Source: Minisyncoccota bacterium (GTDB lineage: Bacteria; Patescibacteriota; Minisyncoccia; JAHIHE01; JAGLIN01). Taken from it: a stretch of DNA of 64,000 bases. Below, one piece after another: positions 40,029 through 56,518 of the stretch (the stretch's first letter is position 1; every line of letters starts with the position of its first letter). The notes under the pieces were generated by a model, which saw only the letters and a program-made list of their open reading frames with translations, had not been told where the DNA came from and did no database searches. The stretch is taken from the NCBI GenBank assembly GCA_023142995.1, contig JAGLIM010000024.1, forward strand, positions 6,071-70,070. The letters are read 5' to 3'. The position numbers were made by a program, and so were the translations under genes.

Positions 40029-40092
40029 ATTTTTAATTTAGTTTTTAAACTGGCAATTTGGCAATGTATATATATAATGCCAAATTGCCGTT

Positions 40093-41160
40093 TCAGATTA
40101 AGACTTCTTGAGTTTTTTCTTCTTTGCTAAATTTTGAAAGATAGCATATTTTTGTGTTTCCTTCTCCCTTTTTTTCTAAGATAATATTTTGTATTAAAAG
40201 ATCTTTTATTGCGCTCATGATACTCTTATCGCCAATATCTTCCAGGTCTTTTACTTTCTTACATATCTCATTTTTAGCAAGTCCCCTCTGTTCTTTTTCT
40301 AGAACTGATAATACTATTTCTTTAGCTATATTTCTTTTGCTTATTTTTTCAGGACATACTCCTAGATAATTAATTTCTACTTTCCCTTCATTTTCTTCAA
40401 CAATAATATTGAATGGCTCAATTTCTTTATCGGTTCTAAGTTTAGCCTGTTCAACCAAAATTTTAGATCTGTCATCTTTATCTCTCTTGAGTGCTATATG
40501 CGCATCAACAGCTGCTGAAATATCAGAAGAGCCTCTTAGTCTATTTTGAGCGGTAGTTTTAGCGAAATATTCTTTTTTGTCGTGATGAGTTATTATTATG
40601 GTTTTACCATGTTGACAGAAAAATTTAATACATCTAAAGACTTCTGCCATTTGAGAAGCATCATTCTCTTCTGCTGTATTTACTCTCACTAAAGAATCAA
40701 TAAAAATAACATCTATTTCCTTTTGTTCGCAGATTTCTAATACGTTTTTAACTAATTCTTTTTTGGATACTAAAAATCCATTTTGCGATAAAAAATAAAT
40801 TGGAAGAGTTGATTCAGCCCCTAGTAATTTAAGCCTATCTCTTACCAATCTTAAATGATTCTCTTCGTCAATAATAAGAACTTTATTTTTTTCACATTTA
40901 AATTGACCAAATAAATTTTCTCCTTTGGCAATATCTAATGCCATTCTTAAAAGTAGCCAGGTTTTGAAACTCGCTGGAGCACCTGAAAGAATAGTTATTC
41001 CTTGGTGTGGGATAAGTTTTTCAATTACCCATTTATTTTCATGGAATTTCATGGAAAATAACTCATCCAAGCTAATAGGATTTAATTTCCATTTTTTCTG
41101 TTTTTCATCAATATTTTCTTTTTCTAACTCTAAAGTCTTTTTTTCATTTTCATTTTTCAT
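40093..41160 (-). CDS. RepA/DnaB-like replicative ATPase (AAA_25 family) of mobile elements
   Basis: Walker A GAPASFKT. Walker B LIIDEE-like region. C-terminal wHTH-like tail. Confidence 0.6.
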   Translation of the reverse strand: MKNENEKKTLELEKENIDEKQKKWKLNPISLDELFSMKFHENKWVIEKLIPHQGITILSGAPASFKTWLLLRMALDIAKGENLFGQFKCEKNKVLIIDEENHLRLVRDRLKLLGAESTLPIYFLSQNGFLVSKKELVKNVLEICEQKEIDVIFIDSLVRVNTAEENDASQMAEVFRCIKFFCQHGKTIIITHHDKKEYFAKTTAQNRLRGSSDISAAVDAHIALKRDKDDRSKILVEQAKLRTDKEIEPFNIIVEENEGKVEINYLGVCPEKISKRNIAKEIVLSVLEKEQRGLAKNEICKKVKDLEDIGDKSIMSAIKDLLIQNIILEKKGEGNTKICYLSKFSKEEKTQEVLI

Positions 41161-41173
41161 ATTTTTTAATTTA

Positions 41174-41773
41174 ATAATTATTTAAATATTCTACAGCTTC
41201 TTTAAACGAATAGTTATAAAGAAGTCTTACAAAATTTATTGAGTTACCCCCATAATTGCAACCAAAGCATCAACAAGAATTAGTTTCAAGATAGATATGG
41301 AAAGACGGGGTTTTTTCGTCATGGAGAGGACAGAGACAGACTAATGACTTACTTGTTCTTCTCAGTGGTTGATTTATAAGTGTTTCAATCGGGACCGCTA
41401 TGGCTTGTTGAATTTGATCTTCAGTTACCCATCCTTTCGGAGTTTTATTCGATGCGAACATTAATATTCCTTTAAGCTTTTTCGTTTGTTTTTCAATTTC
41501 AAGTAATTTTTGCACTTTATTTGCTTTTACCCATTCACGACAAAACCATTTTGAAAATTCATCGCCGTCTATGTTTTTTATAATAGTTAAATGTCTTTTG
41601 ATTTCTTTTGTTAAGCTTGCTTGTAATGTTTCATGTTCAATTATCTTATTTCGAATAACTTCCTTGGCCTCGGGAAATATATTCAAAAGTTCTTTATTGT
41701 TATATCTTGAAAGCGACATTCTCCATTGTTTTTCAACTTCATAATTGTATTCTTTTTTTGATTTGAATTTCAT
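41174..41773 (-). pseudogene. primase-type CHC2 zinc-finger protein interrupted by an in-frame TGA inside the zinc finger
   Basis: ..CPLHDEKTPSFHIYLETNSC-TGA-CFGCNYGGNSINFVRLLYNYSFKEAVEYL. The finger is split between the annotated ORF and the 32 in-frame codons after the stop. Confidence 0.5.
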
Positions 41774-41781
41774 ATAATGAT

Positions 41782-42030
41782 TTAACTGTTATAAATTCTT
41801 GTTTTAATATTTTTTATACAACTAGCGAAAGCAGTAGGTTCAACGCGTAATTGTTGCATGAAATATTTCTGAATTAAATTATCTAATTTCTTATCTTTTT
41901 TTATTAAGAAAATCGCTTTAGATGGATTTTGTTTGTCTATTGATTCGATTTGATAGCCGTAACAACAAAGCGTGGCACATAGAGAAAGATCACTTGATTT
42001 GTAATAATCGTTTTTTATTGATGTTTTCAT
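41782..42030 (-). CDS. hypothetical protein
   Basis: 82-aa ORF in the element replication module. Confidence 0.35.
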   Translation of the reverse strand: MKTSIKNDYYKSSDLSLCATLCCYGYQIESIDKQNPSKAIFLIKKDKKLDNLIQKYFMQQLRVEPTAFASCIKNIKTRIYNS

Positions 42031-42192
42031 GATAATTTTAGTTAATAATTATTTAATTAATTACAAGTATATTTTACTGTACTAGCTTAATACCTCTAGT
42101 GACCTCTATCTTCTTTTCGTAAAACAAAAAACAGCTCAAGTAAGCTGTTTCTTAATAAGTTATTAACACCAACCAAAAGTTAACCTAAAGTT

Positions 42193-42924
42193 TTAATCAA
42201 CAAATTTTATATTATATTTATCATTTAATTTATAACCACCAGTATCAAGATTAATTATTAAATCTTCTTTCAGTTTGAGTTTGTTTTTAAAATTTTCATT
42301 AATTTCCTTAATCTCTTTGCTTAATTGCGACAAATTCTTGTTGTATAAAATTTCAGCTAATAAGTTGCCATTTTTTTTGTTATCTTTTAAATTATGTATT
42401 ATTTTTTTTCTTTTACTCGCTGTCTTCATTGGGTAACTTAGTTCGCTATCTTTATTCTTTCTATAAATTCCTTTATTGTTGGATATAATTATATTTATTT
42501 TGTTTGTATCATTATTACTCTTTTTCACTTTGGCTCTCATTTCGTTTTTAGTAGCTTTATCAAGTATTTCATCTATTTTCTTTTCATATTCCTTGCATTT
42601 CTGTAAAAATTTTATAGTTTTTTTAACTATATAACCCTCGACAATAATCTCATTGGAATTGAAATTTTTATTTTTTTCCAGCGTCTTGTTCATTTCGTCA
42701 ATGTCACGCTTCTCAATTTTAATAATCTTCAACCTTTCCAGTTCCTCAAAAAGGGCAAGGTTTTTAGTGTTCTCATTATAAAAGGTTTTATTATTTCTTA
42801 TTGTGATAATTGGAAAATACACGGAGCCATCACTTAAGCTTTCATGTTCAGTTTTATATTTAATCCTTTGTAAGAGATTGTTTATCTCAATATTATTTTG
42901 CCTATCAGCATTGAAAATTTTCAT
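42193..42924 (-). CDS. hypothetical K/N-rich protein
   Basis: 243-aa ORF. Confidence 0.45.
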   Translation of the reverse strand: MKIFNADRQNNIEINNLLQRIKYKTEHESLSDGSVYFPIITIRNNKTFYNENTKNLALFEELERLKIIKIEKRDIDEMNKTLEKNKNFNSNEIIVEGYIVKKTIKFLQKCKEYEKKIDEILDKATKNEMRAKVKKSNNDTNKINIIISNNKGIYRKNKDSELSYPMKTASKRKKIIHNLKDNKKNGNLLAEILYNKNLSQLSKEIKEINENFKNKLKLKEDLIINLDTGGYKLNDKYNIKFVD

Positions 42925-43039
42925 ATAATTTAATATTAATTAACTTCATTCTAATACATTTTACGGGATTTATCAAAGAAATTTATCTCTGAACTTGTAA
43001 AATAATTATTTAAGAAGTATAATAATATTATAGTAAAAA

Positions 43040-43206
43040 AAACAATTTAAGTGCCTAACCCCGTAGTTTTCAACTACGGATATGGCATAAAAAACCAGTT
43101 AAGTATAAAGACGGCTATCTGTCTTGTTTCTACTTAACTGGTCATAATTCGAAAGGATTATGGGTTCTCCGAAAGGGGAGCCAGAGCAAGCGGGTAGCCT
43201 TTTTTG
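43040..43206 (+). ncRNA. GC-rich hairpin cluster: candidate replication origin/sso or small structured RNA
   Basis: CCGTAGTT-ttc-AACTACGG. CCAGTTAAGTA...TACTTAACTGG enclosing AGACGG-ctat-CTGTCT. Two GAAA-tetraloop hairpins (TAATTC-GAAA-GGATTA; GGTTCTCC-GAAA-GGGGAGCC). The cluster ends in a T-run and is embedded in AT-rich DNA between divergent genes. Confidence 0.3.
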
Positions 43207-43268
43207 ATTGCTCGTTATTAAGAATAATAATAAATTATTTATATTGTTAATCTATTACATATAATATT

Positions 43269-44471
43269 ATGAAAAAGCTATTAATAGTCGTGGGAATATT
43301 ATTTGCCTTCAGTGCAAATGCAACAACAATTCCAGAGGGTGCAGTTATAAAGACTGCAAATAATCCAGATGTATATATTGTAAAATATAAGAATGGGAAG
43401 CAGTTTAAGAGGTTGGTTTTAAACCAGCAGGTTTTTGAAAGTTACGGTCATTTAAGATGGGAGGATATTTTAATTGTTGATCAAGCCGCGATAGATTCTT
43501 TCATGACATCTAATCTGGTAAGGGCTGACGGTCAAGCAAAAGTTTATCAATTAGTTGCTAATGGAGATATTGGTAGTAAACATTATTTAGATTTCAATAG
43601 CTATGATTTGGATTCAGTTTATACTATAAATTCAGTAGATTTTGGAAATTATGTAATAGGAGAAGTTAGAGGAATTACCAAAACAAGTCAAGAAAATATT
43701 AATACTGAAAGTACTGATGAAAAACTTCAAAAGATGATATCTATAAATAAAGAATGCATCAAAACGAATACTGAAAGAATAAAAGAAAATGAGGCGCTTG
43801 TTATAAAAATAAACAATGAAATAAATAAGTATTCAGAATATTCTTTAGTTCAACAGTCAGGGCAACAACTTATTAGCGAAATAAAAAATGATTCGCATAT
43901 ATCAAATAAAATAAGCAATATTTGTAATGAATTAGTTGACGAATCAATTGCTTTACTTGGTTTGGAAAAAAGTTCTTTCAGTAGAATTTCATATTTGACG
44001 GATCAATTTACTTCTTACACAAAACAACGAGATATGAATTATGATAAAATCGGTTCTATCATGAATTCTTATGTTTTGAATGTTAAATCAGCGTTGAAAC
44101 AGGAAATAGCAGAAAAGAGCGAAAAGCTGGAAAGAATGACAGCTTCCTATGAAGCCATAGAGCAATTAAATAGTTTAATTAGCGAAGCAGATAATCAGCT
44201 GAATATTTTAAGTGTGCAAATAGAGAAAAAAAATGCAGAGATAGAAAATGCAAAAAATGGACAGTGTCTTGCAACTACTGCTCAACTAGATAGAATATTA
44301 GCGAAATTAATACCAGAATATAATTCTTTGATTGAACAATATAATGTTTATCTTGAGATAAGAAGTGATCTTGTGTCTGTTGCTGGCAAGGTAAATGATT
44401 ACGGAAAATACGGAATTCCTCTTTCTTATAAAGACAAATTATTTTTACAAGATTTGGGAATAAACTTTTAA
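43269..44471 (+). CDS. secreted coiled-coil protein (signal peptide)
   Basis: MKKLLIVVGILFAFSANA signal. Coiled-coil-rich C-terminal half. Confidence 0.5.
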   Translation: MKKLLIVVGILFAFSANATTIPEGAVIKTANNPDVYIVKYKNGKQFKRLVLNQQVFESYGHLRWEDILIVDQAAIDSFMTSNLVRADGQAKVYQLVANGDIGSKHYLDFNSYDLDSVYTINSVDFGNYVIGEVRGITKTSQENINTESTDEKLQKMISINKECIKTNTERIKENEALVIKINNEINKYSEYSLVQQSGQQLISEIKNDSHISNKISNICNELVDESIALLGLEKSSFSRISYLTDQFTSYTKQRDMNYDKIGSIMNSYVLNVKSALKQEIAEKSEKLERMTASYEAIEQLNSLISEADNQLNILSVQIEKKNAEIENAKNGQCLATTAQLDRILAKLIPEYNSLIEQYNVYLEIRSDLVSVAGKVNDYGKYGIPLSYKDKLFLQDLGINF

Positions 44472-44480
44472 TTTATAAAT

Positions 44481-44921
44481 ATGGACAAAAACAGATTAAT
44501 TTTATCAATTGCAATTTTATCAGCAAGCATTATTTTGGGCGGTTTTTATTATGCGAGCCAAGTTAATAAACAGCAGTCCATTGAGAGACAACAAGCTATT
44601 AGAATAGAAGAAGATAAAAAAGCAGATTATTTTAAAAAGAAAATAGAGTGCGAAGAATATGCCGAAGGCATAAAAAAGGAAATAGATGAATCTAATGGAG
44701 GTCGTTATATTTCTATATATACAGAAACATTTGAAATGATTTTTTATAGTCCCAAAGATAATAGTTGTTTATATGTGACTCATCGTCTAACTGGAGGTAG
44801 GGAATACTTTATTTATAACGCATTAACAAAAAATAAAATAACTTCATTTCAATTTCCAGAGCAATGGGAAGATTATAAAGAATTTATTTTAGAATATTCA
44901 GATGGAGAGATAAGGTTGTAA
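44481..44921 (+). CDS. membrane-anchored hypothetical protein
   Basis: Single N-terminal TM. Confidence 0.45.
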   Translation: MDKNRLILSIAILSASIILGGFYYASQVNKQQSIERQQAIRIEEDKKADYFKKKIECEEYAEGIKKEIDESNGGRYISIYTETFEMIFYSPKDNSCLYVTHRLTGGREYFIYNALTKNKITSFQFPEQWEDYKEFILEYSDGEIRL

Positions 44922-44960
44922 AATTTAAAATACAACAAAATATATTATTTAACAAATTTT

Positions 44961-45599
44961 ATGGCTATTTTTACACCACGAGGATTAAAAATAAGACTTC
45001 CGTTTAACTATGCATTTACCCTAGTTGCAAGACTTTATCCTAAAGTTGACGCTTTTAAGGTTTTAAAAACGACTGAAGGGCTAGAATCAATTCCTGTTTT
45101 AATAACTTTTATAGCTGGATTATTATCTTTCTATTTTAGATTGTCTTTATTCGAAATTGGTTTGTATGTTTTTATTGCTTCAGTTGTTGGCTTCCTTGTA
45201 ATGTTTTCTGGGTTGTATATAATTTCTAGACTAGATTACTTAGGAGTATTTTATAGTTATGTTTCGGGTTTTGGAATTTTGCTAATTTTGCTTATAGCAT
45301 ATGGATTTATAATGGTTGGCTGGCAAGGTGTAGTTGTCTTTTTTGTAGCAAAATTTTTAGCGGGAATTGTCAAAACGCCAATAGAAGTTAAGTTAATGAA
45401 ACAACACGGAGAATTAGGATTTCTTACTCTTTCAGAAGAACATTTTTTTAATGCATATAGAATTCATGCAAAGAGATTAGGAAAAACGACTGATATTGTC
45501 GTGTCAAACGAAGAGCTTGAAGAAGAAAATTGGAAATCAGTCTTTGAAGACTTAGCGAAGAAATGGCCAGAAGTGGTTAGAAGATTTACGATGGATTGA
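44961..45599 (+). CDS. hypothetical membrane protein
   Basis: 3-4 TM segments. Confidence 0.45.
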   Translation: MAIFTPRGLKIRLPFNYAFTLVARLYPKVDAFKVLKTTEGLESIPVLITFIAGLLSFYFRLSLFEIGLYVFIASVVGFLVMFSGLYIISRLDYLGVFYSYVSGFGILLILLIAYGFIMVGWQGVVVFFVAKFLAGIVKTPIEVKLMKQHGELGFLTLSEEHFFNAYRIHAKRLGKTTDIVVSNEELEEENWKSVFEDLAKKWPEVVRRFTMD

Positions 45600-45641
45600 G
45601 CATGATAAGATATAATTATTTTTCAGCAAAAAAATAAAATT

Positions 45642-46343
45642 ATGAATACAGAACAATTAAACAAATACTGCAAAAAGTTATGTGAAGACAGTATAGTTCA
45701 TTTTTTAAAAGATACTTGTAGTAAAGATATCTCGTGTCAGATGTCAATGCGTAATTTTATTTTGTCTCGTCGTGACTGGACGAAAAGTGATAAAGCAGAC
45801 GACATATTTGTGTTTATGGACAAACAATTTATCACCATAAATATGTTATGTTATAAATCAACGAATATACTTATAAATACGGTGATTTGTATTGCAAAAG
45901 TAGAATTAATTGATAAATCTGATAAAGATAATGAAGAAAATCTTGAAAACAATGTAAAAGAAATTGTTAAATGTGTTGAAGGTCAAGATTGGACTATTCC
46001 GTTTATACGTAAAAGATTGATTAATAAAAATAAGGAGAAAAATAAAGAAGAAGGTATATTTCCATTTACTGATGAGTTATTGAATCGTGGTTCGGCTTTA
46101 GATCGTCAGAAAAAATTAGACAGAGAAATAGAAAAGACTATTAAAAAAAGAAACTTGAACAAGAATCCAATTATATTTGAATTAGAGTTAACTGAAGAAC
46201 ATTATCCGGTCCTAAGGAGAAGAGCATTGAAGAGTCCAGAGATGTTAGAGAAAGAGATAAAGAGCATAGCGAACGCATGGCACGAAGGGGACGCGATAAG
46301 CGCGATGCAGGCACTAGAGAGCGACCTAGAGCATAGTGGTTAA
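45642..46343 (+). CDS. hypothetical protein
   Basis: 233-aa ORF upstream of the FtsZ-like gene. Confidence 0.45.
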   Translation: MNTEQLNKYCKKLCEDSIVHFLKDTCSKDISCQMSMRNFILSRRDWTKSDKADDIFVFMDKQFITINMLCYKSTNILINTVICIAKVELIDKSDKDNEENLENNVKEIVKCVEGQDWTIPFIRKRLINKNKEKNKEEGIFPFTDELLNRGSALDRQKKLDREIEKTIKKRNLNKNPIIFELELTEEHYPVLRRRALKSPEMLEKEIKSIANAWHEGDAISAMQALESDLEHSG

Positions 46344-46423
46344 TACATAAATGCAAATAAATTTTAACATTTTCTCATTTTTAACTATTCTGCTATACTT
46401 ATAATAATCAATAATCTAAATTT

Positions 46424-47338
46424 ATGCTCAAATTAGAATCTAAAATTAATATAAAAGTTGTCTCGGTTGGAAATCGTGGTTGCAATGTCCTAGAAAGATT
46501 GAATAAGTTAAAGAAAAATGGTGTGGAGTTTTGCGCAATTTCCAAGGCAGGAAAAGCTTTTAACGGTTTAAGAATTGAAAATAAGATTGAACTTCCATAC
46601 AGTTTTGATCTGGACCATAATAAAAATATCGATAAAATGGCAAAGAGTGTTGTAAATGAAAAACAAAAGGAAATTATAGAACTAGCCAGAGGAACCGATA
46701 TAGTCTTTTTTGTTTGCAATTTAGCTAATAAAGCGTCAGTTCTTCAAACGAAAGAGATTGCACAAACATTCAAAAAAACTGGCTCACTAGTGTTTTTTGT
46801 TGGAGCAACTCCTTTTCATTTTGAAGGTAAAATAAGGCGAGAATTAGTAGAGAAGGCAAGAAAAGATTTAAATAAAGAAGTTGACGCTCTTTTGATTATT
46901 GACAATGAGAAAGTTGCTAAACGAGAAATAAGCGCAAACGAAGCATTTACACAAGTAGATAGTATTGTTTCTGGTGTAATAGATTCTATACTTGATATAA
47001 TCATCAAGGAAGGTATTATCAACATTGATTTTGCTGATTTGAAAACCATTGTTCAAAATTCCGGTGAAACATTTTTCAATAATTCCACTGGCTCAAAAAA
47101 AGAAATAGTCACTGTTATAAATAATCTTTTTTCAAAATCAAACCTGTCTATTCAGAAAAATAGTTTTAGTAAGGTCCTGTATGTTATTTATGCTGGAAAA
47201 AATCTATTAACAAACGAGGTAAAGCAAATTGGTGAAAAAATCCATCAAAAAACAAGGGGGAACGAGAAGATTATTTTCGGAATAGTAGAAGATAAAAAAA
47301 TGAAAGATAAATTAAAGATAGTGATGATTGGGAGTTAA
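46424..47338 (+). CDS. FtsZ/tubulin-fold homologue with degenerate GTP-binding loops but intact T7 loop
   Basis: Colinear with FtsZ: IKVVSVGNRGCN (vs IKVIGVGGGGGN), GVEFCAIS (GVEFFAVNT), TPFHFEGKIRR (KPFNFEGKKR), ALLIIDNEKV (SLITIPNDKL), NIDFADLKTIV (NVDFADVRTVM), IVMIGS (VVATGIG). The tubulin signature GGGTGTG is replaced by NLANKAS. Confidence 0.7.
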   Translation: MLKLESKINIKVVSVGNRGCNVLERLNKLKKNGVEFCAISKAGKAFNGLRIENKIELPYSFDLDHNKNIDKMAKSVVNEKQKEIIELARGTDIVFFVCNLANKASVLQTKEIAQTFKKTGSLVFFVGATPFHFEGKIRRELVEKARKDLNKEVDALLIIDNEKVAKREISANEAFTQVDSIVSGVIDSILDIIIKEGIINIDFADLKTIVQNSGETFFNNSTGSKKEIVTVINNLFSKSNLSIQKNSFSKVLYVIYAGKNLLTNEVKQIGEKIHQKTRGNEKIIFGIVEDKKMKDKLKIVMIGS

Positions 47339-47386
47339 GTCAGTGATTAATCGACACTAGGGCAGTTAAATAATTAAATTATAACT

Positions 47387-47707
47387 ATGTTTTGGAGACA
47401 TAGATCAGGAAAAGACGGCAAAGATAAGTTTGGAAGAACTTTTGACGAGGCATGGCGAGAGCATGCTTCGTGGTGTCTTGATACATTTAAAAAGAATGAG
47501 CCTGATGACATAGCGAAAATGAATTATATTTTCAATAATTCTCCAACGCATGTAGGATGTCCTGCCGAACTTAGAAAACACTTATCAGGCAATGCGGTAT
47601 ATAATGCCTATCTTGAAATAAAAATGCATTTTAAATCATTTAAAAAATATTACACTCAAGAGGAGATTGACTCAATAAGCTACTATTTTGAAGATAATAC
47701 AGAATAA
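47387..47707 (+). CDS. hypothetical protein
   Basis: 106-aa ORF. Confidence 0.4.
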   Translation: MFWRHRSGKDGKDKFGRTFDEAWREHASWCLDTFKKNEPDDIAKMNYIFNNSPTHVGCPAELRKHLSGNAVYNAYLEIKMHFKSFKKYYTQEEIDSISYYFEDNTE

Positions 47708-48276
47708 AATTTATATGGAATTAGCAAGTAAACTATAAATTTTAACTAATTTACGTGAAAAGTAATAACAAGTAAGTTTTTTGTATAAAAAATAATGTTA
47801 ACTAATGTTAAGTTTTTGTAAAAAGTAAGCTAAAGCAAGCTTCTTTTTTTGTGAATAATCAGTTCAAGTCAATTTCTCTAATTTTCAGGCTATATAGATT
47901 ATTTGAGCTTATTCTTTACTAAAAGGGTAAGATTGAATTATAGTCAAAAATCAAGGTACGCCTTAAAAATTGACGATTTAAGGGCGTATTGTTTGTGTAT
48001 AAATAAATAAATTATAGCAAAAGAACCTAAACATAAAAAATCAAAAAAACTTAAAAAGCATTGAGGAAACTCTATGGGATTCTGCGACTAAGCTTCGTGG
48101 TACAGTTGAGTCGTCTGATCATGGTATTTATAAGAAAAATTGTATTTGAAAAAATAGAGAAAGCAATACCTCGCTTATTTAGAAAGATATTTAAAACAGT
48201 TGTATTGACATTATTATTGGTTATACAAAATAACGCTCAAAGGCGTTATTTTGTATATGCAGAAAATTTTATCTAT

Positions 48277-48305
48277 TGACATATTATATTACATGGTATA
48301 GTATT
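48277..48305 (+). promoter_or_regulatory. sigma70-like promoter of higBA (TTGACA-17-TAGTAT)
   Basis: TTGACA at 48277. Confidence 0.4.
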
Positions 48306-48345: not shown

Positions 48346-48633
48346 ATGAAGCTAGTGGGAAGAAAAATACTGTACGATTACAAAGAAAAACACTCTGATT
48401 CTAAATTACATATTGCGTCATGGGAAGCTGAAGTTGAAGAAGCTCAATGGAATACTCCACATGAGCTTAAGCTTAGGTATCCTAAAGCCAGTATTTTAGG
48501 AAATTTACGAGTAGTTTTTGATATTTGTGGGAATAGGTATAGGTTATTGACTATAGTTAATTATAAAAACCAAATAGTATTTGTAGAAAAAATTGGTACA
48601 CATAAGGAATATGATAAATGGAAATTAGGTTAA
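48346..48633 (+). CDS. higB: type II toxin HigB (RelE/ParE superfamily)
   Basis: VVFDICGNRYRLLTIVNYKNQIVFVEKIGTHKEYDK matches the HigB core (ViDv.GN..RLI..i.f....i.vk.I..H.EYDK). Confidence 0.7.
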   Translation: MKLVGRKILYDYKEKHSDSKLHIASWEAEVEEAQWNTPHELKLRYPKASILGNLRVVFDICGNRYRLLTIVNYKNQIVFVEKIGTHKEYDKWKLG

Positions 48634-48637
48634 AAAT

Positions 48638-49861
48638 ATGAGTAAAATAAAAGTTATAAAAACTGAAAAAGATTATAAAGAAGCACTCGAATTACTTGAA
48701 GTGCTAATGATTCGTGATCCAGATCCTGATTCAGATGAGGGTGAACAGCTTGCTGTACTTAGTACTCTTATTCGAGATTATGAATCACAATCTTTTCCTA
48801 AAACACTTCCTGGCCCTATTGATGCTATTAAATTCAGAATGGAGCAAGCCAATCTGACGCCAGTGGACCTAATTCCATATATTGGGAGTAGAAGTAGAGT
48901 GTCGGAGATTTTGTCTGGTAAACGTCAACTCACTATGCAGATGGTGAGGGCAATAGAAACTGGTTTGGGGATTCCAGCTAAAGTTCTTATAAGGAAGCCT
49001 GAAATTGAAGAGAATACGGATATTGATTTAGAATATCAAGCATGGGATAATTGTCTCGTTTCTGAAATGGAATCACGAGGATATTTTGATAGTAGTTCAT
49101 TGAAGAAAAATATCAAGGCGGAATTGTTAAAAAATTTCTTTTCCCGAATGGGACCGCAAGCTCGAATTGTTGGAATGTTGCGTAAATCAAACTATAGATC
49201 ATCGCCCCTTACAGATAAACGAGCTTTAACTGCTTGGTCTACTCGAGTTATTCAGAAAGCAGGGGGTATAAAAGTTTCAAAAAAATATAAAGATGGAACT
49301 GTTACACCTGTTTTTATGCAAAATATTGTAAAATTAAGCGTAGAAGAAGACGGAGTTTTATTAGTTCAAAAATATCTAAAAAAATATGGAATTTTATTAA
49401 TCATTGAACCTCATTTTTCTAAAACTTACTTAGATGGAGCAGCAATTTTTGTAAATAAGGATAACCCGATTATTGGTTTAACCATAAGATATGATCGATT
49501 AGATAATTTTTGGTTCACATTAATGCATGAATTGGCACATATCTCTCTTCACTATAATGAAGATATTAGTCTTTTTTATGACGAAATTGAAGGAGTTACG
49601 ATTGATATAGACGATAAGGAAAAAGAGGCAGATGCATTAGCAGAAGAGTCATTATTACCTAGGGCAAAATGGGAAGTTAGTCCCGCTAGACTAATTCCTT
49701 CTTCTATGGCAGCAAATAGTTTAGCAAAAGAACTTGGTGTACATGTAGTAATAATTGCTGGCCAAATTAGACATAAAGGAAATAAGTACATCTATTTAAA
49801 TAAAATAATTAACAAAGAGAAAGTAAGGCATTACTTTTCTAATGAGAAATGGAATAAATAA
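48638..49861 (+). CDS. higA: HigA-like XRE-HTH antitoxin fused to ImmA/IrrE-type zinc metallopeptidase domain
   Basis: HTH SRSRVSEILSGKRQLTMQMVRAIETGLGIPAKVL. HExxH FTLMHELAHISLH in the C-terminal domain. Confidence 0.65.
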   Translation: MSKIKVIKTEKDYKEALELLEVLMIRDPDPDSDEGEQLAVLSTLIRDYESQSFPKTLPGPIDAIKFRMEQANLTPVDLIPYIGSRSRVSEILSGKRQLTMQMVRAIETGLGIPAKVLIRKPEIEENTDIDLEYQAWDNCLVSEMESRGYFDSSSLKKNIKAELLKNFFSRMGPQARIVGMLRKSNYRSSPLTDKRALTAWSTRVIQKAGGIKVSKKYKDGTVTPVFMQNIVKLSVEEDGVLLVQKYLKKYGILLIIEPHFSKTYLDGAAIFVNKDNPIIGLTIRYDRLDNFWFTLMHELAHISLHYNEDISLFYDEIEGVTIDIDDKEKEADALAEESLLPRAKWEVSPARLIPSSMAANSLAKELGVHVVIIAGQIRHKGNKYIYLNKIINKEKVRHYFSNEKWNK

Positions 49862-50948
49862 TATGTTTGATTTAAAACACTACGTACCAATATTGAAATG
49901 GAAGCGGGCCGAACAAGGTGCCCTAGCTGCTTTAAGCGTGGAACATAAAAAAAATATTACTCCGTTAATTCAGTTTGTTATGCCTAACCAAAAGAAAGAA
50001 GAACAACTCAAAGACGTTGTTCAAAGATTTACAGAGCAAATTTATCAAATTCCCGATAAAATTGGAGAGGTTTGGGGTAATACGCCTATTTTTGTCGATT
50101 TTAGCTTGCTGTTTACAACTGAGCTTAAAATTAAAAGTCTTAAATATATTTTAAAAGAAGGAAGAGATCCTGGAATTACTTTAATTCCGGTTATACATCT
50201 TAATGATGATAGTAAAATAAAAAAAGTTGCTTATTCGTTGTCGAAAGAAAATGGAAGTGGTTTATGTTTGCGAATAATTTGTTCAGACTTTTCTGATTTA
50301 ATGAAATTCAATAAAGATGTCGCAGATATACTTTCAGTATCTGGATTGTCAGAAAAAGATATAGATTTATTGGTAGACATAAAAGAAATAGAAGAAAAAG
50401 ATAATAAATGCGCTAAATATTTTGCGTTGGGGCAGAAAATTAATAATTTATCAAAGTGGAGAACTTTTACTTTTGCCAGTGGCGCTTTCCTTAAGGATTT
50501 ATCTAATTGTAAATTCGATGAAGAAAACCATATATTACGTCTTGATTGGGAAAATTGGAAGGATAAAATTACAAACCAGAAGTTGAATAGAAAGCCATCA
50601 TTTGCTGACTACACAATTCAGTATCCTATTTATGAAAATATTTCGCAATTTTTTCATCCAACCACAAGCATTAAATATACTTTAGAGAATGAATGGTTGA
50701 TTATGAAAGGGAAAAAGCAAAAATTTGAATTATATTTGGCCAGTGCCGCTGAGCTAGTAAAGGATAATAGATTTTATGGAGAAAATTTTAGCTTTGGTGA
50801 CAAATATATTGCTGACAAAGCAAGACATTTTATGGTATATATAAAAAATCCTGCAATCAAAGGTACAGGAAGCACTGAAACGTGGTTAAAGGCTGGAATT
50901 AATCACCATTTAGTATTAACGGCGAATCAGGTCGCCAGTTTACCCTAA
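49842..50948 (+). CDS. hypothetical protein, possibly sce7725-like partner of the convergent PD-(D/E)xK gene
   Basis: 368-aa ORF. Its 3' end overlaps the 3' end of the minus-strand gene by ~50 bp. Confidence 0.45.
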   Translation: MRNGINNMFDLKHYVPILKWKRAEQGALAALSVEHKKNITPLIQFVMPNQKKEEQLKDVVQRFTEQIYQIPDKIGEVWGNTPIFVDFSLLFTTELKIKSLKYILKEGRDPGITLIPVIHLNDDSKIKKVAYSLSKENGSGLCLRIICSDFSDLMKFNKDVADILSVSGLSEKDIDLLVDIKEIEEKDNKCAKYFALGQKINNLSKWRTFTFASGAFLKDLSNCKFDEENHILRLDWENWKDKITNQKLNRKPSFADYTIQYPIYENISQFFHPTTSIKYTLENEWLIMKGKKQKFELYLASAAELVKDNRFYGENFSFGDKYIADKARHFMVYIKNPAIKGTGSTETWLKAGINHHLVLTANQVASLP

Positions 50949-51513
50949 AGAATATTTTTTCTCTTACTTTGTTTCCAAGAGTTTGCTGATCAAAAACTGT
51001 TGATAATTTTTGATAAATTACATCTCTTGGTTTTGAATACATTCCCTTAGCTTCATTTATTTCTTCTAAAAGTATTAGTGCTTCTTCTTTCCATAAAAGC
51101 CTTGCAACAGAAACTCTGTCTTGATCTTTATTATATTCTTCTTCTCTAATACGGTTAAACATAACTGAACCATTTGTATTAATTTTTGCTAGAATAATAC
51201 CCCACCAACTTGGTGCCATTTTTATAGTATCATATAGATGACTTTTACCAACAACTAAAGTAATCTTATTAAATACTGAATTATAGATTTCAATTTGATT
51301 CGGCAGTCTTTGTAAAGTATCTTGATCACTTTTTATTTCATAGCCGTGCATGATTCCATTGACAACTGCAATATCAATTCTGGCGTTACCATGTTGAACA
51401 CCCATTTCTTCAATTATCCTTACTCTTCTATCATTTAAATGACGTTTTTTTAGAATTTCCCTGAGAACTGAGCGTATCATTATATCGTTTGTAGAAATTG
51501 TTTCGTGAGACAT
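50899..51513 (-). CDS. PD-(D/E)xK nuclease-fold protein (sce7726-like)
   Basis: GNARIDIAVVNGIMHGYEIKSDQDTLQRL = D...(E)IK restriction-endonuclease-like core. Confidence 0.5.
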   Translation of the reverse strand: MSHETISTNDIMIRSVLREILKKRHLNDRRVRIIEEMGVQHGNARIDIAVVNGIMHGYEIKSDQDTLQRLPNQIEIYNSVFNKITLVVGKSHLYDTIKMAPSWWGIILAKINTNGSVMFNRIREEEYNKDQDRVSVARLLWKEEALILLEEINEAKGMYSKPRDVIYQKLSTVFDQQTLGNKVREKIFFRVNWRPDSPLILNGD

Positions 51514-51645
51514 ATAAATTTATCTTTATAGTTATTTATATATAAATAAGCTTACTTATATTTTATCATAAATTCGACAATAAAAGAACAGCGCCTTATT
51601 TAATTAAAATCTAATAATTATTAATATGTTCAATAAATCTATATT

Positions 51646-52008
51646 ATGAATCAAGCTCAAATTCCTCCTGAATTTTGGTATCAATCGCTACAAGCTCTAG
51701 GCGAGGGACCAAAAATACTAGCTTCAATTCTAATGGAAACAACAAAACAATTATTGTCGTCTTATTGGCAATGTATTTTATTTCTCATATTATTTACAGC
51801 ACTAATAAAAATTTTAGCGGGTAAAATTGGTAGTTTGATATATAATTTAATTTATTTTGGAATTTTATTTGTAATAATAGCAATAAGCGGATTTGAAATA
51901 TTATTTAATCCTTATTTTGATATTCTTTATTTGTTATTTCGTCCTGTTTCATTTTTTTTGACGGGGTGTATATTGGATAAATTGAAGCCGAGACATGGAA
52001 TTTATTGA
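51646..52008 (+). CDS. small hypothetical membrane protein
   Basis: Three hydrophobic segments. Confidence 0.35.
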   Translation: MNQAQIPPEFWYQSLQALGEGPKILASILMETTKQLLSSYWQCILFLILFTALIKILAGKIGSLIYNLIYFGILFVIIAISGFEILFNPYFDILYLLFRPVSFFLTGCILDKLKPRHGIY

Positions 52009-52044
52009 AGGATATAATTGATTATAATTCATTGAATCATCAAA

Positions 52045-52548
52045 ATGAAAACAAAGATCACAGTTATCAAAGATGATATAACAAAACTCAAAGTTGATGC
52101 TATTGTTAATGCAGCCAACAAAACTTTATTGGGTGGTGGAGGAGTTGATGGCGCGATTCATAATGAGGCCGGACCTAAATTACTAGAAGAGTGTAAAACA
52201 CTTGGTGGTTGCGAAGTGGGTGAGGCGAAAATAACAAAGGGATATAATTTACCTGCAAAATATATCATCCACACAGTCGGTCCGATTCATGGCCATGAAG
52301 ACGGAAAAGAGGATTCTTTACTTTTTTCTTGTTATAAAAATAGTTTAATGATTGCGAAGGAAAAAGACATTAAAACAATCGCTTTCTCTTGTATATCAAC
52401 AGGAGTCTTCAGGTTTCCAAAGGACAAAGCAGCAGAAATCGCCATGGGTACTGTAAAAAGTTTTATTCAAGAATATCCAGATGTATTCGAAGAGATTACA
52501 TTCGTGACTTTCTCGGAATCGGATTTTGATATTTATAAAGAAAACTAA
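52045..52548 (+). CDS. macro-domain protein (ADP-ribose binding / O-acetyl-ADP-ribose deacetylase family)
   Basis: [23 protein letters not shown]...[15 protein letters not shown]. Confidence 0.85.
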
Positions 52549-52628
52549 AATTATCAAAAAAGCTTTCTTGTGAAGTTTTTAAGTTATTATGAATGTGAGA
52601 ATAATTTAAATTATATTAACCTAAAAAG

Positions 52629-53972
52629 ATGTTCAATAAACCTATATCACAATTAAATTTGGAAGATATTCAAATACTCATTGATAATCAGGAAAAGGAA
52701 AGTTTGATCTTGGAATACAAACAAGAATTAACTGGAAACGATAAAGAGAAGAAAGAAATATCCAAAGATGTTTCTGCTATAGCTAACACCTGTGGCGGTT
52801 ATTTAATTATTGGTATAGAAGAGGAGGACGGGAAGGCTGCTTCAATATCTGGAACACAAGGGAAAATTGGCAGACAACCGGTTGAGGAATGGATTGAAAG
52901 TGTTCTTATCTCTAATGTCCGACCAAGATTAACAATTACTCCAAAAATTATAAGTATTGAAGCTGATCGTGATAAAGTAGTTGTAGTTATTCATATTCCA
53001 CAAAGCACTAGACGACCACATATGGTTACAATTGGTGGCAAGAACGCATATTATAGACGTCATAATTATCAAGCGACTTATGCTGATGAACATGAGGTTC
53101 GATCAATGTTTTTGGAAAACAAAAGCTCAAGTGATGAAATGAATATATTTTTGAATACACGTAATCTTATAGATTCTTCGAAAGATAATTTTGCTATTAC
53201 ACCATTATCCTCTTTGCTATTAAAATCCTTAAGAGAGACAAGAGAGCTTCCAGAGGGATTTAGTGGTGATCCTTTTGTTTTATTTTCAGCTTGTCCTCGA
53301 TACCTAGAAGAACGGGTTGATATTGCTTCAACGGATTTTCGGTCATGGCTTGATGAAAATGACAAGATAAACCTTTTTGATCTTGATATTGATTTTTTGG
53401 ATTATAACAAAGTAATTTCTGCGGACAGTATCCGTTCTTTAACCGAAGTACAAAGCGAGAAAAGAGAAGATAGATTGCCCTACAGATATGTTGAAATATT
53501 TCGAAATGGATATATAGAAAACGGCATAAGCAATGAACTAATGTGGTCTAATAACAAAATGGGACTTATGTTTCAGATTGCCTATTTTACAGCTTCTTTT
53601 TGGTTGTTCATGAAGTTTATTAAAAATATGTATGAACACATAGAATATATTGATGAAGTTAATTTGATAGTCGCGTTGTCTGATATTGATAATGTAACAC
53701 TTCATGGTTTTGGTAATAAAAATGAAAATACAAAATGGGCTAATCCTTACGATGTGTTTCATACGTCAAATATACCAACATGTAAACAGAAAAACGTAAA
53801 GATAGAAAGAAATATTGTAATAGCTGAGTTAAATGATGAATACATAGAAGAAATTGTAAAAGAAGTTTCAAGAAGAGTATCTAACGCTTTCGGGGAAAGC
53901 ATAGCAAAATGTTTTGATGATCAGGGTGTTTTTAATCGTGATCAACTAAGGGGTTTTAGAAATGTTCAATAA
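52629..53972 (+). CDS. AlbA_2 (Schlafen-like) domain protein with C-terminal domain of unknown function
   Basis: N-terminal ESLILEYKQEL...DVSAIANTCGGYLIIGIEEEDGK matches the AlbA_2 / divergent AAA_4 signature. Confidence 0.55.
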   Translation: MFNKPISQLNLEDIQILIDNQEKESLILEYKQELTGNDKEKKEISKDVSAIANTCGGYLIIGIEEEDGKAASISGTQGKIGRQPVEEWIESVLISNVRPRLTITPKIISIEADRDKVVVVIHIPQSTRRPHMVTIGGKNAYYRRHNYQATYADEHEVRSMFLENKSSSDEMNIFLNTRNLIDSSKDNFAITPLSSLLLKSLRETRELPEGFSGDPFVLFSACPRYLEERVDIASTDFRSWLDENDKINLFDLDIDFLDYNKVISADSIRSLTEVQSEKREDRLPYRYVEIFRNGYIENGISNELMWSNNKMGLMFQIAYFTASFWLFMKFIKNMYEHIEYIDEVNLIVALSDIDNVTLHGFGNKNENTKWANPYDVFHTSNIPTCKQKNVKIERNIVIAELNDEYIEEIVKEVSRRVSNAFGESIAKCFDDQGVFNRDQLRGFRNVQ

Positions 53973-54084
53973 ACTAAATCTGTTCTTGTGCAGATAGATT
54001 TGAGATATGAATATATTCATCCGTGCACACAATGCGGAGAAATAAGATAAAATTTATCAAAATATTATAATAAAAAATAACACG

Positions 54085-54276
54085 ATGATTTCCGAGGAAC
54101 AACTTAAAAAATACAAAGATATTTACAGAAAGAAATTTGGTAAGGAAATATCAGATCAAGAAGCGCTAGAGCAAGGAACAAAATTGATTAGTCTTATGGA
54201 AATTATATATAAACCAATAACTAAGAATAAATTTAAAGCAGTTCAAAAAAGGAGAAGAGAAACAGGTGATATATAG
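54085..54276 (+). CDS. small basic hypothetical protein
   Basis: 63-aa ORF. Confidence 0.25.
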   Translation: MISEEQLKKYKDIYRKKFGKEISDQEALEQGTKLISLMEIIYKPITKNKFKAVQKRRRETGDI

Positions 54277-54705
54277 TTACGAAGTAAAAAAGCAGAATAT
54301 TAAGCACAAACAAGCTTATCCAACTCCTTTATTCCTACATCCCATTTCTTAATATCTACTAATAAGGGGTTTGAACTCTCAATGCTAGGGTGTACTAGTT
54401 CAGAAAGTGGCTCTTGAAACAAAATTTGGGAGCTACCTTTTTTTATTTAAAATCTTTTAAAATGTTATCCATTAATGTGTTCTAAGTGTAAAATAGGTCA
54501 GAATGTGTTAATATGATTATAAAGAAATTTTAAAAAACTTTGATTTATGCTCTTTCGTTTTTATACTCCTCCGCTTTTAAAATTCTAATCTTGTTATTTT
54601 AAGATAATATCTCTTTGTCTAAAGATTGGTTGATTCTTAATATAGACTTGCGGCGTATTATATAAAATTATTTAAATAAATGAGTATAGATCTGTAATTA
54701 TTGCT

Positions 54706-54828
54706 ATAAATGTCACAATTAGCCATTGAAAATGTCGCAATTAAATGCCTTATTTCAAAGGTTAAACCGATTTTATTGTATATAATGTCACAATTAGCCC
54801 TTGAAAATGTCGCAATTAAATGTTAGAC
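54706..54828 (+). repeat. two ~40-bp direct repeats, each an internal TGTC(A/G)CAATTA dyad: candidate operator of the Fic-HTH gene
   Basis: aatgtcacaattagcc.ttgaaaatgtcgcaattaaatg at 54709 and 54788, ending 8 nt before the ATG. Confidence 0.5.
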
Positions 54829-54835
54829 TATTAAT

Positions 54836-55888
54836 ATGGAATCTCTAAATAAAAGACAAGAATATATTAAAGAATATATTAAAAATAAAAAAGAAACCCA
54901 AATCAGGGATATTTTAGTGTATATCAAAAATGATTTTAATGTAGATAGAAGAACAGTCATTAGAGATATAGATACATTATTAAGATTAGGATACGTGTCT
55001 AAACAGGGAGCTGGTAGAAGTACTTCTTATTCTATTTCAAACAGATATGATCTTTTAAAAGAGATAGATGTTGAAAAATATTTTTCAATTCCTTTTAATG
55101 AGAGAGAGATAAAAACAAATTTTAATTTTGACATTTTTGACATTTTAAAAGAAAGTGTTTTTTCAGAAGATGAAGAAAAAAAGCTTGCACAATTACATAG
55201 TGGTTTTGTGAAGAATTTTTCACAGTATGATAGTCAAACTCTTATCAATAAGGAATTTGAGAGAATTTTAATAGAATTTTCTTGGAAGTCTTCGCAAATT
55301 GAAGGAAATACTTACTCGCTTCTTAATACTGAACAACTTATTAAAAATAATAAGTTAGATAGGAAAAAGACCAAAAAAGAAACTCAAATGATACTAAATC
55401 ACAAAGACGCGTTTAACGAATCGTTACAAAACAAAAACGTTTTCGTGCGATTATCTCGTGCTAATATTGAGCATATTCATTATCTTTTAACAAAAGATCT
55501 AGATATTCCCAGAAATCTTCGTAAATCATTAGTCAGGATAACTGGCACGAATTACAAACCTCTTGATAATATATATCAAATAGAAGAGGCTCTTCAAATG
55601 ATGATAAAATTGATCAATAATAAAGAAAACTTTTTTGAAAAAGCATTTTTGTCCTTGGTATTGCTTTCATATATTCAAGCGTTTGAAGATGGGAATAAAC
55701 GAACGGCAAGAATGACGGCTAATGCAATTTTGTTATCATATAATTCTATTCCTATATCATATCGGGCAGTTAACGAAATTGAATATAAGAAAGCGAGTTT
55801 ATTGTTCTATGAGGTTAATAACTTATTTCATTTCAAAGATATTTTTTTAAAACAATTTGAATTTGCGGTAGAAAATTATTTTAAATAA
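54836..55888 (+). CDS. Fic/DOC-family protein with N-terminal wHTH; Fic motif degenerate (QAFEDGNKRTAR)
   Basis: HxFx(D/E)GNGRxxR reads QAFEDGNKRTAR, with the catalytic His replaced by Gln. Confidence 0.65.
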   Translation: MESLNKRQEYIKEYIKNKKETQIRDILVYIKNDFNVDRRTVIRDIDTLLRLGYVSKQGAGRSTSYSISNRYDLLKEIDVEKYFSIPFNEREIKTNFNFDIFDILKESVFSEDEEKKLAQLHSGFVKNFSQYDSQTLINKEFERILIEFSWKSSQIEGNTYSLLNTEQLIKNNKLDRKKTKKETQMILNHKDAFNESLQNKNVFVRLSRANIEHIHYLLTKDLDIPRNLRKSLVRITGTNYKPLDNIYQIEEALQMMIKLINNKENFFEKAFLSLVLLSYIQAFEDGNKRTARMTANAILLSYNSIPISYRAVNEIEYKKASLLFYEVNNLFHFKDIFLKQFEFAVENYFK

Positions 55889-55975
55889 TATGATCTAAGT
55901 CTTTTTGTATTGTAGTACGGGACAGGCTTTAGGGTCTGTTTTAAAAATGGAATAAATTCTATTAACTTATTTACT

Positions 55976-56518
55976 ATGAAAATATTCTTAATTGGTCCTG
56001 GCGGTGTTGGTAAAACGACCTGTGGAGCAATTTTGGCGAATTTATTAGGCTATAATTTTATTGATTTGGATAGGGAATTCAATGAACGTATTGCTGATAC
56101 CAGTGATTTCATTGATGCTTATGGACATAAAAAATATTGGCTTATGAATTCAAAACTGTTTTATGAAATTTTAAGCCAATATTCAGGGAACTTTGTTTTT
56201 TCTTTATCTGCTGGATTTTTAGATCATAAGAATATGGATGAATTGACCTTAGAACACAAGCGAACTTTAAAAGAATTAGGAATTTCTGTTTTACTTCTTC
56301 TTTCTGAATCTTTGGATAAAAGTATGAAGATTGTGGTTAAGAGACAGCTCTTGCGAGGTTTTGGCTTAACAAGAGATAGAGAAGAGGTTAGATTTATTCA
56401 ACGCTTTCAAAAATATAAGATTCTTGGAGATATTAAAATATTTTCATACGATAAGCCTGAAACTATAGCTGAACAAATGAAAGATAGAATAGAAATATAT
56501 AATAAGGAGAATAATTAA
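55976..56518 (+). CDS. P-loop kinase (shikimate/adenylate-kinase-like fold)
   Basis: LIGPGGVGKTT Walker A directly after Met. FIDLD motif. Confidence 0.45.
   Translation: MKIFLIGPGGVGKTTCGAILANLLGYNFIDLDREFNERIADTSDFIDAYGHKKYWLMNSKLFYEILSQYSGNFVFSLSAGFLDHKNMDELTLEHKRTLKELGISVLLLLSESLDKSMKIVVKRQLLRGFGLTRDREEVRFIQRFQKYKILGDIKIFSYDKPETIAEQMKDRIEIYNKENN

Follow-up and report, generated by a model that had tools for sequence, protein, structure and literature searches.

Predicted defense cargo of an integrated element in a Pacebacteria genome: a four-gene PD-lambda-2/cII-type cassette and the likely independent modules beside it

The 64-kb window analyzed here (the whole stretch of 64,000 nucleotides from contig JAGLIM010000024.1, with a GC content of about 30% across its length) matches contig DAOVUG010000001.1 (GCA_030632705.1), and its host is a Candidatus Pacebacteria member of the candidate phyla radiation (CPR). 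It contains a stretch of 8 kb which begins with four closely packed genes, here termed A to D. These code respectively for a HigB-family protein, a HigA-like XRE helix-turn-helix (HTH) domain fused to an ImmA/IrrE (M78) zinc peptidase, a Beta-family protein and a member of the sce7726/phage P4 cII family. Beyond them lie genes for a stand-alone macro domain, a prokaryotic Schlafen protein (pSlfn), a protein combining a winged HTH (wHTH) with a Fic domain and a SKI-family P-loop kinase (Table 1). A first-pass annotation of this DNA had described an islet of defense and toxin-antitoxin (TA) building blocks. All the open reading frames (ORFs) that it named are present where it had placed them, its domain calls are confirmed by hidden Markov model (HMM) searches with Pfam, NCBIfam and PADLOC, and the defense/TA character that it gave to the region is upheld. 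We consider it probable that the stretch is a series of independent modules, namely a four-gene abortive-infection (Abi) cassette, the macro protein, the pSlfn, the wHTH-Fic protein and the SKI kinase, rather than a single system; the gene identities and the modular layout as such can be held with high confidence. Most of the components are members of described phage-defense families; what is new is the architecture of the PD-lambda-2/cII cassette, a four-gene variant of known systems.

The first protein of the cassette retains the C-terminal GTHxEY..W motif of its family, which is conserved across 49 homologues. The product of gene B matches the PADLOC PD-Lambda-2_B model over residues 1-403 (E 1.8e-140) and also capP (5.5e-6), and its HExxH motif (HELAH) corresponds to an HEla-H signature conserved in 51 sequences. 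Gene C matches, in addition to the models given in the table, the PADLOC "beta" model (1.3e-9). Translation of gene C probably begins at M8 (49863), giving a protein of 361 amino acids, because this methionine is invariant in the Beta alignment and lies 1 nt past the stop of gene B. Its N-terminal half shows an alternation of strands and helices, and the AlphaFold2 (AF2) model, with a mean predicted local distance difference test (pLDDT) score of 56, is confident for residues 30-210 and poor in the C-terminal half. Foldseek searches with this model recover almost only TIM barrels (E about 1e-3, TM about 0.3), a weak hint that the N-terminal half may be TIM-barrel-like.

Gene D is convergent with gene C, and the two overlap by 50 nt at their 3' ends. 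Its precomputed Pfam assignment is PF26915 (Phage_P4_cII). Eight residues (E36, D47, E59, K61, S62, D65, R69 and Q73) are invariant in 62 cII/sce7726 sequences that include P4 cII itself, and the signature E36..D47..E59-x-K61..Q73 fits the E..D..ExK..Q pattern of PD-(D/E)xK enzymes. The earlier recognition of a PD-(D/E)xK-like protein is thereby upheld, in that the conserved acidic residues and the lysine stand in the expected arrangement. Profile searches for the fold of gene D gave no match in the PDB and, in Pfam, a weak HSDR_N_2 match (E 0.0027) for 1 of 29 family members. A terminator-like hairpin for the cII/sce7726 transcript is seen on the minus strand at 50849-50870, inside the Beta coding sequence and about 30 nt past the cII stop. 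At the other end of the cassette, the inverted repeat that precedes the promoter-like site may be an operator, or it may terminate the block upstream.

Table 1. Features of the 8-kb stretch and of the integrated element to which it belongs; positions count from the first letter of the window
Feature	Position	Strand	Evidence or remark
tRNA-Glu	37603-37677		left start of the integrated element
Large serine recombinase ORF	37637-39220	minus	3' end overlaps the last 41 nt of tRNA-Glu, on the opposite strand
Tubulin/FtsZ-like gene	46424-47338		in the integrated element
Perfect 15-nt inverted repeat, 6-nt loop	48222-48257		TATACAAAATAACGC / GCGTTATTTTGTATA; directly upstream of the cassette promoter-like site
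Promoter-like site of the A-B-C operon	48276-48304	plus	TTGACA, 17-nt spacer, TAGTAT; consensus match only
Gene A, HigB-family, RelE-like, 95 aa	48346-48633	plus	Pfam HigB_toxin 95.8 bits, 1.9e-27, full model; PADLOC PD-Lambda-2_A 1.5e-36
Gene B, HigA-like XRE HTH + ImmA/IrrE (M78) zinc peptidase fusion, 407 aa	48638-49861	plus	Pfam HTH_3, Peptidase_M78
Gene C, Beta family, P4 beta-related, 368 aa	49842-50948	plus	Pfam Beta_protein 1.8e-56; PADLOC PD-Lambda-2_C 1.9e-39
Gene D, sce7726/phage P4 cII family, 204 aa	50899-51513	minus	NCBIfam NF033832 163.2 bits vs cutoff 70; PADLOC "cll" 6.9e-29
Hydrophobic ORF, 120 aa, not a cassette member	51646-52008	plus	absent from all related loci
Stand-alone macro domain protein, 167 aa	52045-52548	plus	Pfam Macro 3.2e-46; NCBIfam NF001664 214 bits vs cutoff 200
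pSlfn, 447 aa	52629-53972	plus	Pfam SLFN_AlbA_2 9.8e-18, residues 24-146 only
63-aa ORF	54085-54276	plus	followed by a strong terminator-like hairpin, 54407-54445
Operator array (putative)	54698-54822	plus	two 50-nt repeats, 54698-54747 and 54773-54822, 88% identical, 75-nt period
wHTH-Fic protein, 350 aa	54836-55888	plus	Pfam Fic 6.5e-12, 46.6 bits; weak N-terminal wHTH matches; motif QAFEDGNKRTAR
SKI-family P-loop kinase, 180 aa	55976-56518	plus	Pfam SKI 3.6e-13, Walker A

The PADLOC-type HMM scan that the first-pass annotation had recommended assigns A, B and C to the PD-Lambda-2 models and D to the model "cll", and defense-annotation tools now split the locus into "PD-Lambda-2" and an orphan "cll" match. 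A census argues for a different partition. An alignment of Beta homologues was searched against one genome per GTDB species, giving 57 loci, which were then probed by tblastn with the window proteins. These loci span at least 10 phyla, and their taxa include Patescibacteria, Saccharibacteria, Bacteroidota, Planctomycetota, Acidobacteriota, Omnitrophota, Nitrospiraceae, Dehalococcoidia and Gammaproteobacteria. All 47 loci that have enough flanking sequence and a Beta identity of at least 36% show A-B-C and a convergent D in the same order and orientation. Seven further loci are cut by contig ends and are otherwise consistent with the four-gene order, while three distant ones (25-26% Beta identity) have a B-like gene with C and D and no detectable HigB. 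The length of the cassette stays within 3.11-3.25 kb across loci (about 3.2 kb in the window), and in 41 of 56 loci genes C and D overlap by exactly 50 nt, as they do in the window. The cassette is usually poorer in GC than its flanks (mean 38.8% vs 43.0%), and this points to horizontal transfer. Judged by sequence and gene order, A, B, C and D are a single rigid, widely transferred four-gene cassette. The earlier division into two separate pairs, higB with higA-ImmA and a convergent nuclease pair, hence gives way to one unit in the 47 complete loci, and the conservation of the convergent C/D pair in other genomes, on which that view had depended, is found in every one of them together with the other two genes.

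The cassette is closest in composition to PD-lambda-2, a validated three-gene, 2.6-kb phage-defense system of E. coli ECOR42 (Vassallo et al. 2022), in which B is toxic, A neutralizes B and C is needed for defense against lambda-vir. It shares with this system the same three families in the same order (HigB-like, XRE-HTH/M78 and Beta), with C directly downstream in the same operon. The first-pass annotation had taken A as the toxin and B as the antitoxin; these roles are reversed in the sole experiment on PD-lambda-2. The window cassette differs in having the convergent cII/sce7726 gene as a fourth member, which is absent in E. coli: the annotated PD-lambda-2 locus (L086) consists of HigB, ImmA/IrrE and beta genes without a sce7726 gene, the next gene coding for a DUF6119 protein. 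The B protein of that locus is 39% identical to the window B over its full length and its C protein 20% identical to the window C, and its A protein is without the C-terminal HigB part and scores 24.6 bits, below the Pfam cutoff, whereas the window A covers the whole model. With 47 species representatives, the four-gene form seems to be the widespread one. Nearly all relatives of this Beta subfamily have a component that is missing from the E. coli system on which the experiments were made.

The fourth gene connects the cassette to a second named system, the gop-beta-cII locus of satellite phage P4 (Ghisotti 1990; Rousset et al. 2022), which gives protection from lambda and P1. Both this locus and PD-lambda-2 behave like TA/Abi systems. 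P4 cII is annotated in RefSeq as a "sce7726 family protein" and P4 beta as a "beta family protein", and their genes are convergent; the likeness to the window thus extends to a Beta protein with a convergent cII of the sce7726 family in an anti-phage, TA-like locus. Identity to the P4 proteins amounts to 22% for window C (against beta) and 32% for window D (against cII). Gop, on the other hand, is a 133-aa protein unrelated to the window A or B, and tblastn found no homologue of it in the 57 related loci. A further difference is that P4 beta and cII are parted by a terminator, whereas window C and D overlap. The convergent nuclease pair had been put forward as a possible uncharacterized system; the four-gene cassette of which it is a part equals PD-lambda-2 plus the cII of P4 gop-beta-cII. 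The suggested resemblance to the sce7725/sce7726 pair holds for one partner. Gene D is a clear sce7726 member (163 bits against NF033832), but its partner is a Pfam Beta_protein that gives no match to the sce7725 model (NF033831) at E values up to 10, and only the Rac beta protein touches that model, over its first 35 positions (E 0.099). Gene B, finally, resembles ImmR/ImmA, DdrO/IrrE and CapH/CapP in joining an HTH DNA-binding module with an M78 HExxH peptidase and is distinguished from them by the fusion of both modules in one protein, by the HigA-like nature of its HTH and by its HigB partner.

Other loci show that the first gene of this core is exchanged. Its variants include DUF6932 (S. 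meliloti pEm1132a and Acinetobacter pAC1633-1), a GNAT-like protein (E. coli) and Gop (P4). In the DUF6932/ImmA-IrrE/beta/sce7726 cassette of A. baumannii pAC1633-1 (L084; NZ_CP059301.1, 913-14342) a blaNDM-1 region of about 10 kb with flanking IS30-family transposases interrupts the beta gene, the fragments of which lie at 2605-2796 (N-terminal) and 13001-13780. When a gammaproteobacterial cassette was searched at the DNA level against E. coli genomes, the matches were short only but led to L086 and to a second locus, L085, in E. coli QDFD216 (NZ_CP053211.1, 2800-5980). The latter occupies a P4-like satellite hotspot past psu and ahead of an integrase and tRNA-Leu, and its cassette comprises a GNAT-like protein of 227 aa, an M78 peptidase of 300 aa that lacks an HTH, beta and a convergent sce7726. 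The Rac-SA53 prophage carries the Beta and sce7726 pair alone, the 3' ends of the two genes overlapping by 41 nt.

The family is modular, and one of its variants, the distinct and widespread four-gene HigB form, joins the two named systems; the papers on PD-lambda-2 and gop-beta-cII that we searched do not mention a link between them. Two broader readings, taken jointly, are possible, and we put them forward with less than even confidence. The first is that PD-lambda-2 and gop-beta-cII could be one modular superfamily, the second that a Gln-type Fic clade, considered further below, could consist of regulators. In the case of the former, the core would be an M78 peptidase (often present), Beta and the cII PD-(D/E)xK nuclease with a fixed antisense 3' overlap, to which an exchangeable first gene (HigB, DUF6932, GNAT-like or Gop) would be added. 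If this holds, PD-lambda-2 of E. coli with its three genes is an outlier that has undergone reduction, while the prevalent and horizontally mobile version is the four-gene HigB form, found in at least 10 phyla including the CPR.

For the working of the cassette we can offer only a tentative chain of events, which as a whole is doubtful. A and B would form a mutually neutralizing, autorepressing complex of the HigB/HigA type, the antitoxin of which carries a latent ImmA/IrrE-type protease. Beta, which is required for defense in E. coli, might be the infection sensor or adaptor that unlocks the M78 switch. Infection would then release the protease switch and free either a translation-arresting HigB or the toxic activity of B itself, leading to growth arrest. 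D could be a Mg-dependent PD-(D/E)xK nuclease that attacks DNA and acts as a DNA-directed effector or as a sensor, and the expression of C and D may be coupled through the antisense overlap, fixed at 50 nt, between their mRNAs. Several points weigh against this proposal. We infer the trigger, the substrate of the protease and what C and D each do; the description "TIM-barrel-like" is a weak one, given the poor Beta model (pLDDT 56); and the nuclease fold of D is assigned from a motif pattern. The one experiment on PD-lambda-2 covers the three-gene form in E. coli. The transfer of the E. coli genetics to the window cassette is uncertain, because the only tested PD-lambda-2 lacks D, has a C that is 20% identical and has an A without the C-terminal HigB motif. 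A literature search on the mechanism of Beta and cII returned nothing specific.

The order and spacing of the genes also bear on whether A-B, as a HigBA-type TA pair, and C-D, as a beta/cII pair, are two independent two-gene systems that merely travel together. Each pair does occur by itself: HigB with XRE-M78 and without Beta is found on plasmids of Paraburkholderia, Limnohabitans, Acinetobacter and Neorhizobium, and Beta with sce7726 and without A/B in the Rac-SA53 prophage, on pSTEC1024_3 and in 6 of 7 IMG/VR contigs. Against this, order, orientation and spacing are fixed in all 47 complete loci, across many phyla, within a unit of 3.1-3.25 kb. Furthermore, C begins 1 nt past the stop of B and is required for A-B-C defense in E. 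coli, and the other variants keep the M78 peptidase with Beta-cII and swap only the first gene (for DUF6932, GNAT-like or Gop). Hence, we regard two independent systems as improbable.

The HigB/HigA ancestry of the cassette raises the question of whether it is antiviral at all. It might instead be an addiction or stability module acting by post-segregational killing, or B might be the ImmR/ImmA-like induction switch of the element. XRE and M78 pairs of the ImmR/ImmA kind control the induction of integrative and conjugative elements and of prophages, the cassette is located on a serine-recombinase mobile element, and A-B pairs are common on plasmids, amid other TA genes. However, the homologous systems were selected and validated for phage defense, the cassette moves as a unit among unrelated contexts independently of this element, and a pSlfn defense gene adjoins it. 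We consider an addiction or switch function distinctly improbable and retain the reading of the four genes as an abortive-infection cassette.

The pSlfn is the second predicted defense module of the stretch. Prokaryotic Schlafens, a defense family published in 2025-26, have been shown to be tRNases that act against viruses; they have an Ex4(E/D)xK motif and carry fused sensor domains of diverse kinds, often unannotated (Perez Taboada et al., Nat Microbiol 2026; PMC13056530). They cleave tRNA once the fused sensor domain recognizes a phage protein and act as single-gene systems (PMC13056530), phage-activated tRNA cleavage having been shown only for RorSlfn5 and Cash. In Foldseek searches with the AF2 model of the window protein (pLDDT 91.9), its N-terminal domain matches SLFN5/11/12/13/14, the tRNase domain of SAMD9 (probability 1.00 for the SLFNs and SAMD9) and DIP2311, and a profile of its family matches the CRISPR-associated Schlafen CbCash (9ylu; E 1.5e-14). 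Its motif reads E24-SLIL-E29-Y-K31, with E24 and K31 invariant and E29 at least 90% conserved among 47 sequences. The C-terminal domain of about 290 amino acids has no Pfam or PDB match. Because it combines a Slfn/AlbA_2 domain with a conserved E24-x4-E29-Y-K31 that fits Ex4(E/D)xK, the 447-aa protein is, as far as sequence and model go, a single-gene pSlfn comprising a predicted tRNase effector and an uncharacterized sensor domain. It shares with the described pSlfns and Cash the Ex4ExK Slfn/AlbA_2 nuclease domain, the single-gene format, a fused C-terminal domain and a neighborhood of defense genes. It is set apart by a C-terminal domain that falls in the "unannotated fusion" class and by having no CRISPR or Csx15 association. 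About 60 full-length homologues were found, and the few with a source name are from CPR bacteria. A 70%-identical one lies on a metagenome contig (k141_1325612; L020, 1-7347) at the end of a serine-recombinase-bounded island, which also holds a Tsp45I-type restriction-modification pair, a HARE-HTH/PDDEXK_5 protein and a DUF8370/DUF8371 protein.

The neighboring macro protein is, by its match to NF001664 (O-acetyl-ADP-ribose deacetylase), a predicted MacroD/YmdB-type ADP-ribose hydrolase. The first-pass annotation had paired it with the AlbA_2 protein. A macro gene was found within 5-6 kb of none of 16 AlbA_2 homologue loci (3 from protein look-ups and 13 from a metagenome scan), and a macro/AlbA_2 two-gene system is accordingly rejected for want of co-occurrence. 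The hydrophobic 120-aa ORF between the cassette and the macro gene has no match in Pfam, NCBIfam or PADLOC.

The Fic protein had been called degenerate and probably not an AMPylase. The latter view agrees with our alignments. The canonical HxFx(D/E)GNGRxxR is not matched, and alignment to FICD places a Gln (Gln281) under the catalytic His. The same alignment places SSQIEGN under the inhibitory-helix motif TVAIEGN, and the residues of this SxxIEGN motif are invariant in the Fic-family alignment. Degeneracy, in contrast, is contradicted by the relatives. The Q..K motif (QxFxDGNKRxxR) is present in 117 of 120 close homologues, taken from more than 8,000 matches. The best 150 representatives of 50%-identity clusters, with identities as low as about 33%, include 115 motif-bearing proteins, of which 113 have Q..K and none has His. 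It is thus a fixed signature of a clade, and a decaying gene is rejected, both the motif and the full length being conserved. The clade recalls several known Fic proteins. As in the Doc motif HPFx(D/E)GN(G/K)R, Lys replaces the second Gly; unlike Doc, the window protein has no His and scores 17.1 bits against the DOC_P1 model (TIGR01550; cutoff 38.65), and the ORF list shows no small upstream gene for a Phd-type antitoxin. With SoFic (SO_4266) and CccR it shares the Fic fold and the fusion of an HTH to Fic, and CccR of Yersinia, which retains the canonical His, provides an experimental precedent for an autorepressing HTH-Fic protein. It departs from SoFic, CccR and Doc in the clade-wide Gln at the position of the catalytic His, in its N-terminal wHTH and in an operator of four direct boxes rather than a palindrome. 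The Fic family is almost absent from viral contigs, in which we found one weak partial match, and the papers that we searched contain no description of the Gln-type clade.

These boxes lie in the repeats directly upstream of the gene. The first-pass annotation had reported two 40-bp direct repeats, each with a TGTC(A/G)CAATTA dyad. The repeats are confirmed, with a length of 50 nt, while the dyad is not: each repeat contains two direct 13-nt boxes, AATGTC(A/G)CAATTA, at 54709, 54731, 54784 and 54806. A dyad operator is therefore rejected. The four boxes are the only exact matches in the 64 kb. Box 4 falls between the -35 element (TTGAAA at 54801) and the -10 element (TAGACT at 54824) of a promoter-like site, in a spacer of 17 nt. 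The -10 element is separated from the ATG by 6 nt, and 54801-54838 shows no Shine-Dalgarno sequence, which suggests that the Fic mRNA is leaderless or nearly so. The same -10/ATG geometry is seen at the homologue loci L087 and L088, and L090 has a 23-nt leader. The box array and the position of the promoter recur upstream of Fic homologues on four unrelated contigs (L087, L088, L090 and L118). L090 and L118 have four boxes spaced 22/53/22, L088 has four spaced 22/75/22 and L087 has three, with the central triplet varying by locus. The operator-like nature ascribed to the repeats thus gains from the overlap of the boxes with the promoter-like site and from their presence upstream of four homologues, and this recurrent layout supports the interpretation of the array as a putative autoregulatory operator for the N-terminal wHTH. 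In our main reading, the Fic domain of the window protein, to which the canonical His base is unavailable, most likely has a regulatory role through the binding of a ligand or partner, and the protein would be a repressor of its own gene with the four promoter boxes as its target. In the second of the two joint readings raised above, the Gln-type wHTH-Fic proteins as a whole would be a deep clade of transcription factors that are autoregulated and in which the Fic fold serves for sensing and not for catalysis. A Gln-type clade with a conserved four-box operator makes a case for asking what the Fic fold does without its catalytic histidine.

The kinase gene downstream of Fic satisfies only the broad Pfam SKI model. 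All NCBIfam shikimate-kinase equivalogs (AroK/AroL) score far below cutoff, the best reaching 35.3 bits against a cutoff of 161. The proposal that the kinase is the partner of Fic fails on co-occurrence, a SKI gene being present at none of 5 Fic homologue loci, and a Fic/kinase system is rejected on this ground; the kinase is not linked to Fic and may be chromosomal. The view that the macro/AlbA_2 and Fic/kinase pairs are new multi-gene conflict systems has in its favor their adjacency and shared strand in the window and in near-identical contigs of the same sampling project. It is very improbable in view of these two absences, the single-gene action of pSlfn proteins and the promoter-like site and operator that Fic has of its own behind a terminator-like hairpin. 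Consistent with this, tblastn with the window proteins found no homologues of the macro, pSlfn, Fic or SKI proteins near any of the 57 cassette loci, and we keep to the reading of the stretch as independent modules.

The surroundings show what these modules belong to. Upstream of tRNA-Glu lie cell-division (dcw) genes (mraW, ftsI and a mur ligase). The serine recombinase that overlaps the tRNA is followed by an AAA_25 primase/helicase, a DnaG zinc-ribbon protein, a DUF5659 protein and five ORFs without a family (37603-47707), and PHROGs searches of the same interval recognized no phage structural genes. Downstream of the 8-kb stretch are purD and other housekeeping genes. Because of this setting of dcw genes, tRNA-Glu, serine recombinase, primase/helicase and purD, the former islet is the cargo end of an integrated mobile element of about 17-19 kb that is located between tRNA-Glu and purD. 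Its right border was not located. No direct repeat of 13 nt or more joins the tRNA-Glu region to anything downstream, and no empty site was found, as every contig with the flanking purD or mur-ligase proteins also has the island; hence, Fic and SKI may be either cargo or chromosomal. Little is known of phage defense and mobile elements in the CPR, and the window documents defense cargo of the PD-lambda-2 and pSlfn types on an integrative element in a Pacebacteria genome.

Two minor features of the element and its cargo may be noted. Homologues of the 63-aa ORF that follows the pSlfn gene (43-67% identity) show a loose linkage, lying a few hundred bases to a few kilobases from pSlfn genes (L104:7173-7346, L106:7846-8034 and L107:577-762) or from PD-lambda-2-type cassettes (L062:9823-9984 and L078:3189-3320). 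An Rfam scan of 47.7-57.2 kb gave no match, and within the element a full-length LOOT RNA (RF03000) is found at 43052-43182 on the plus strand (84.4 bits, gathering score 46.4; E 5.6e-15), in the intergenic gap that separates the divergent gene blocks.

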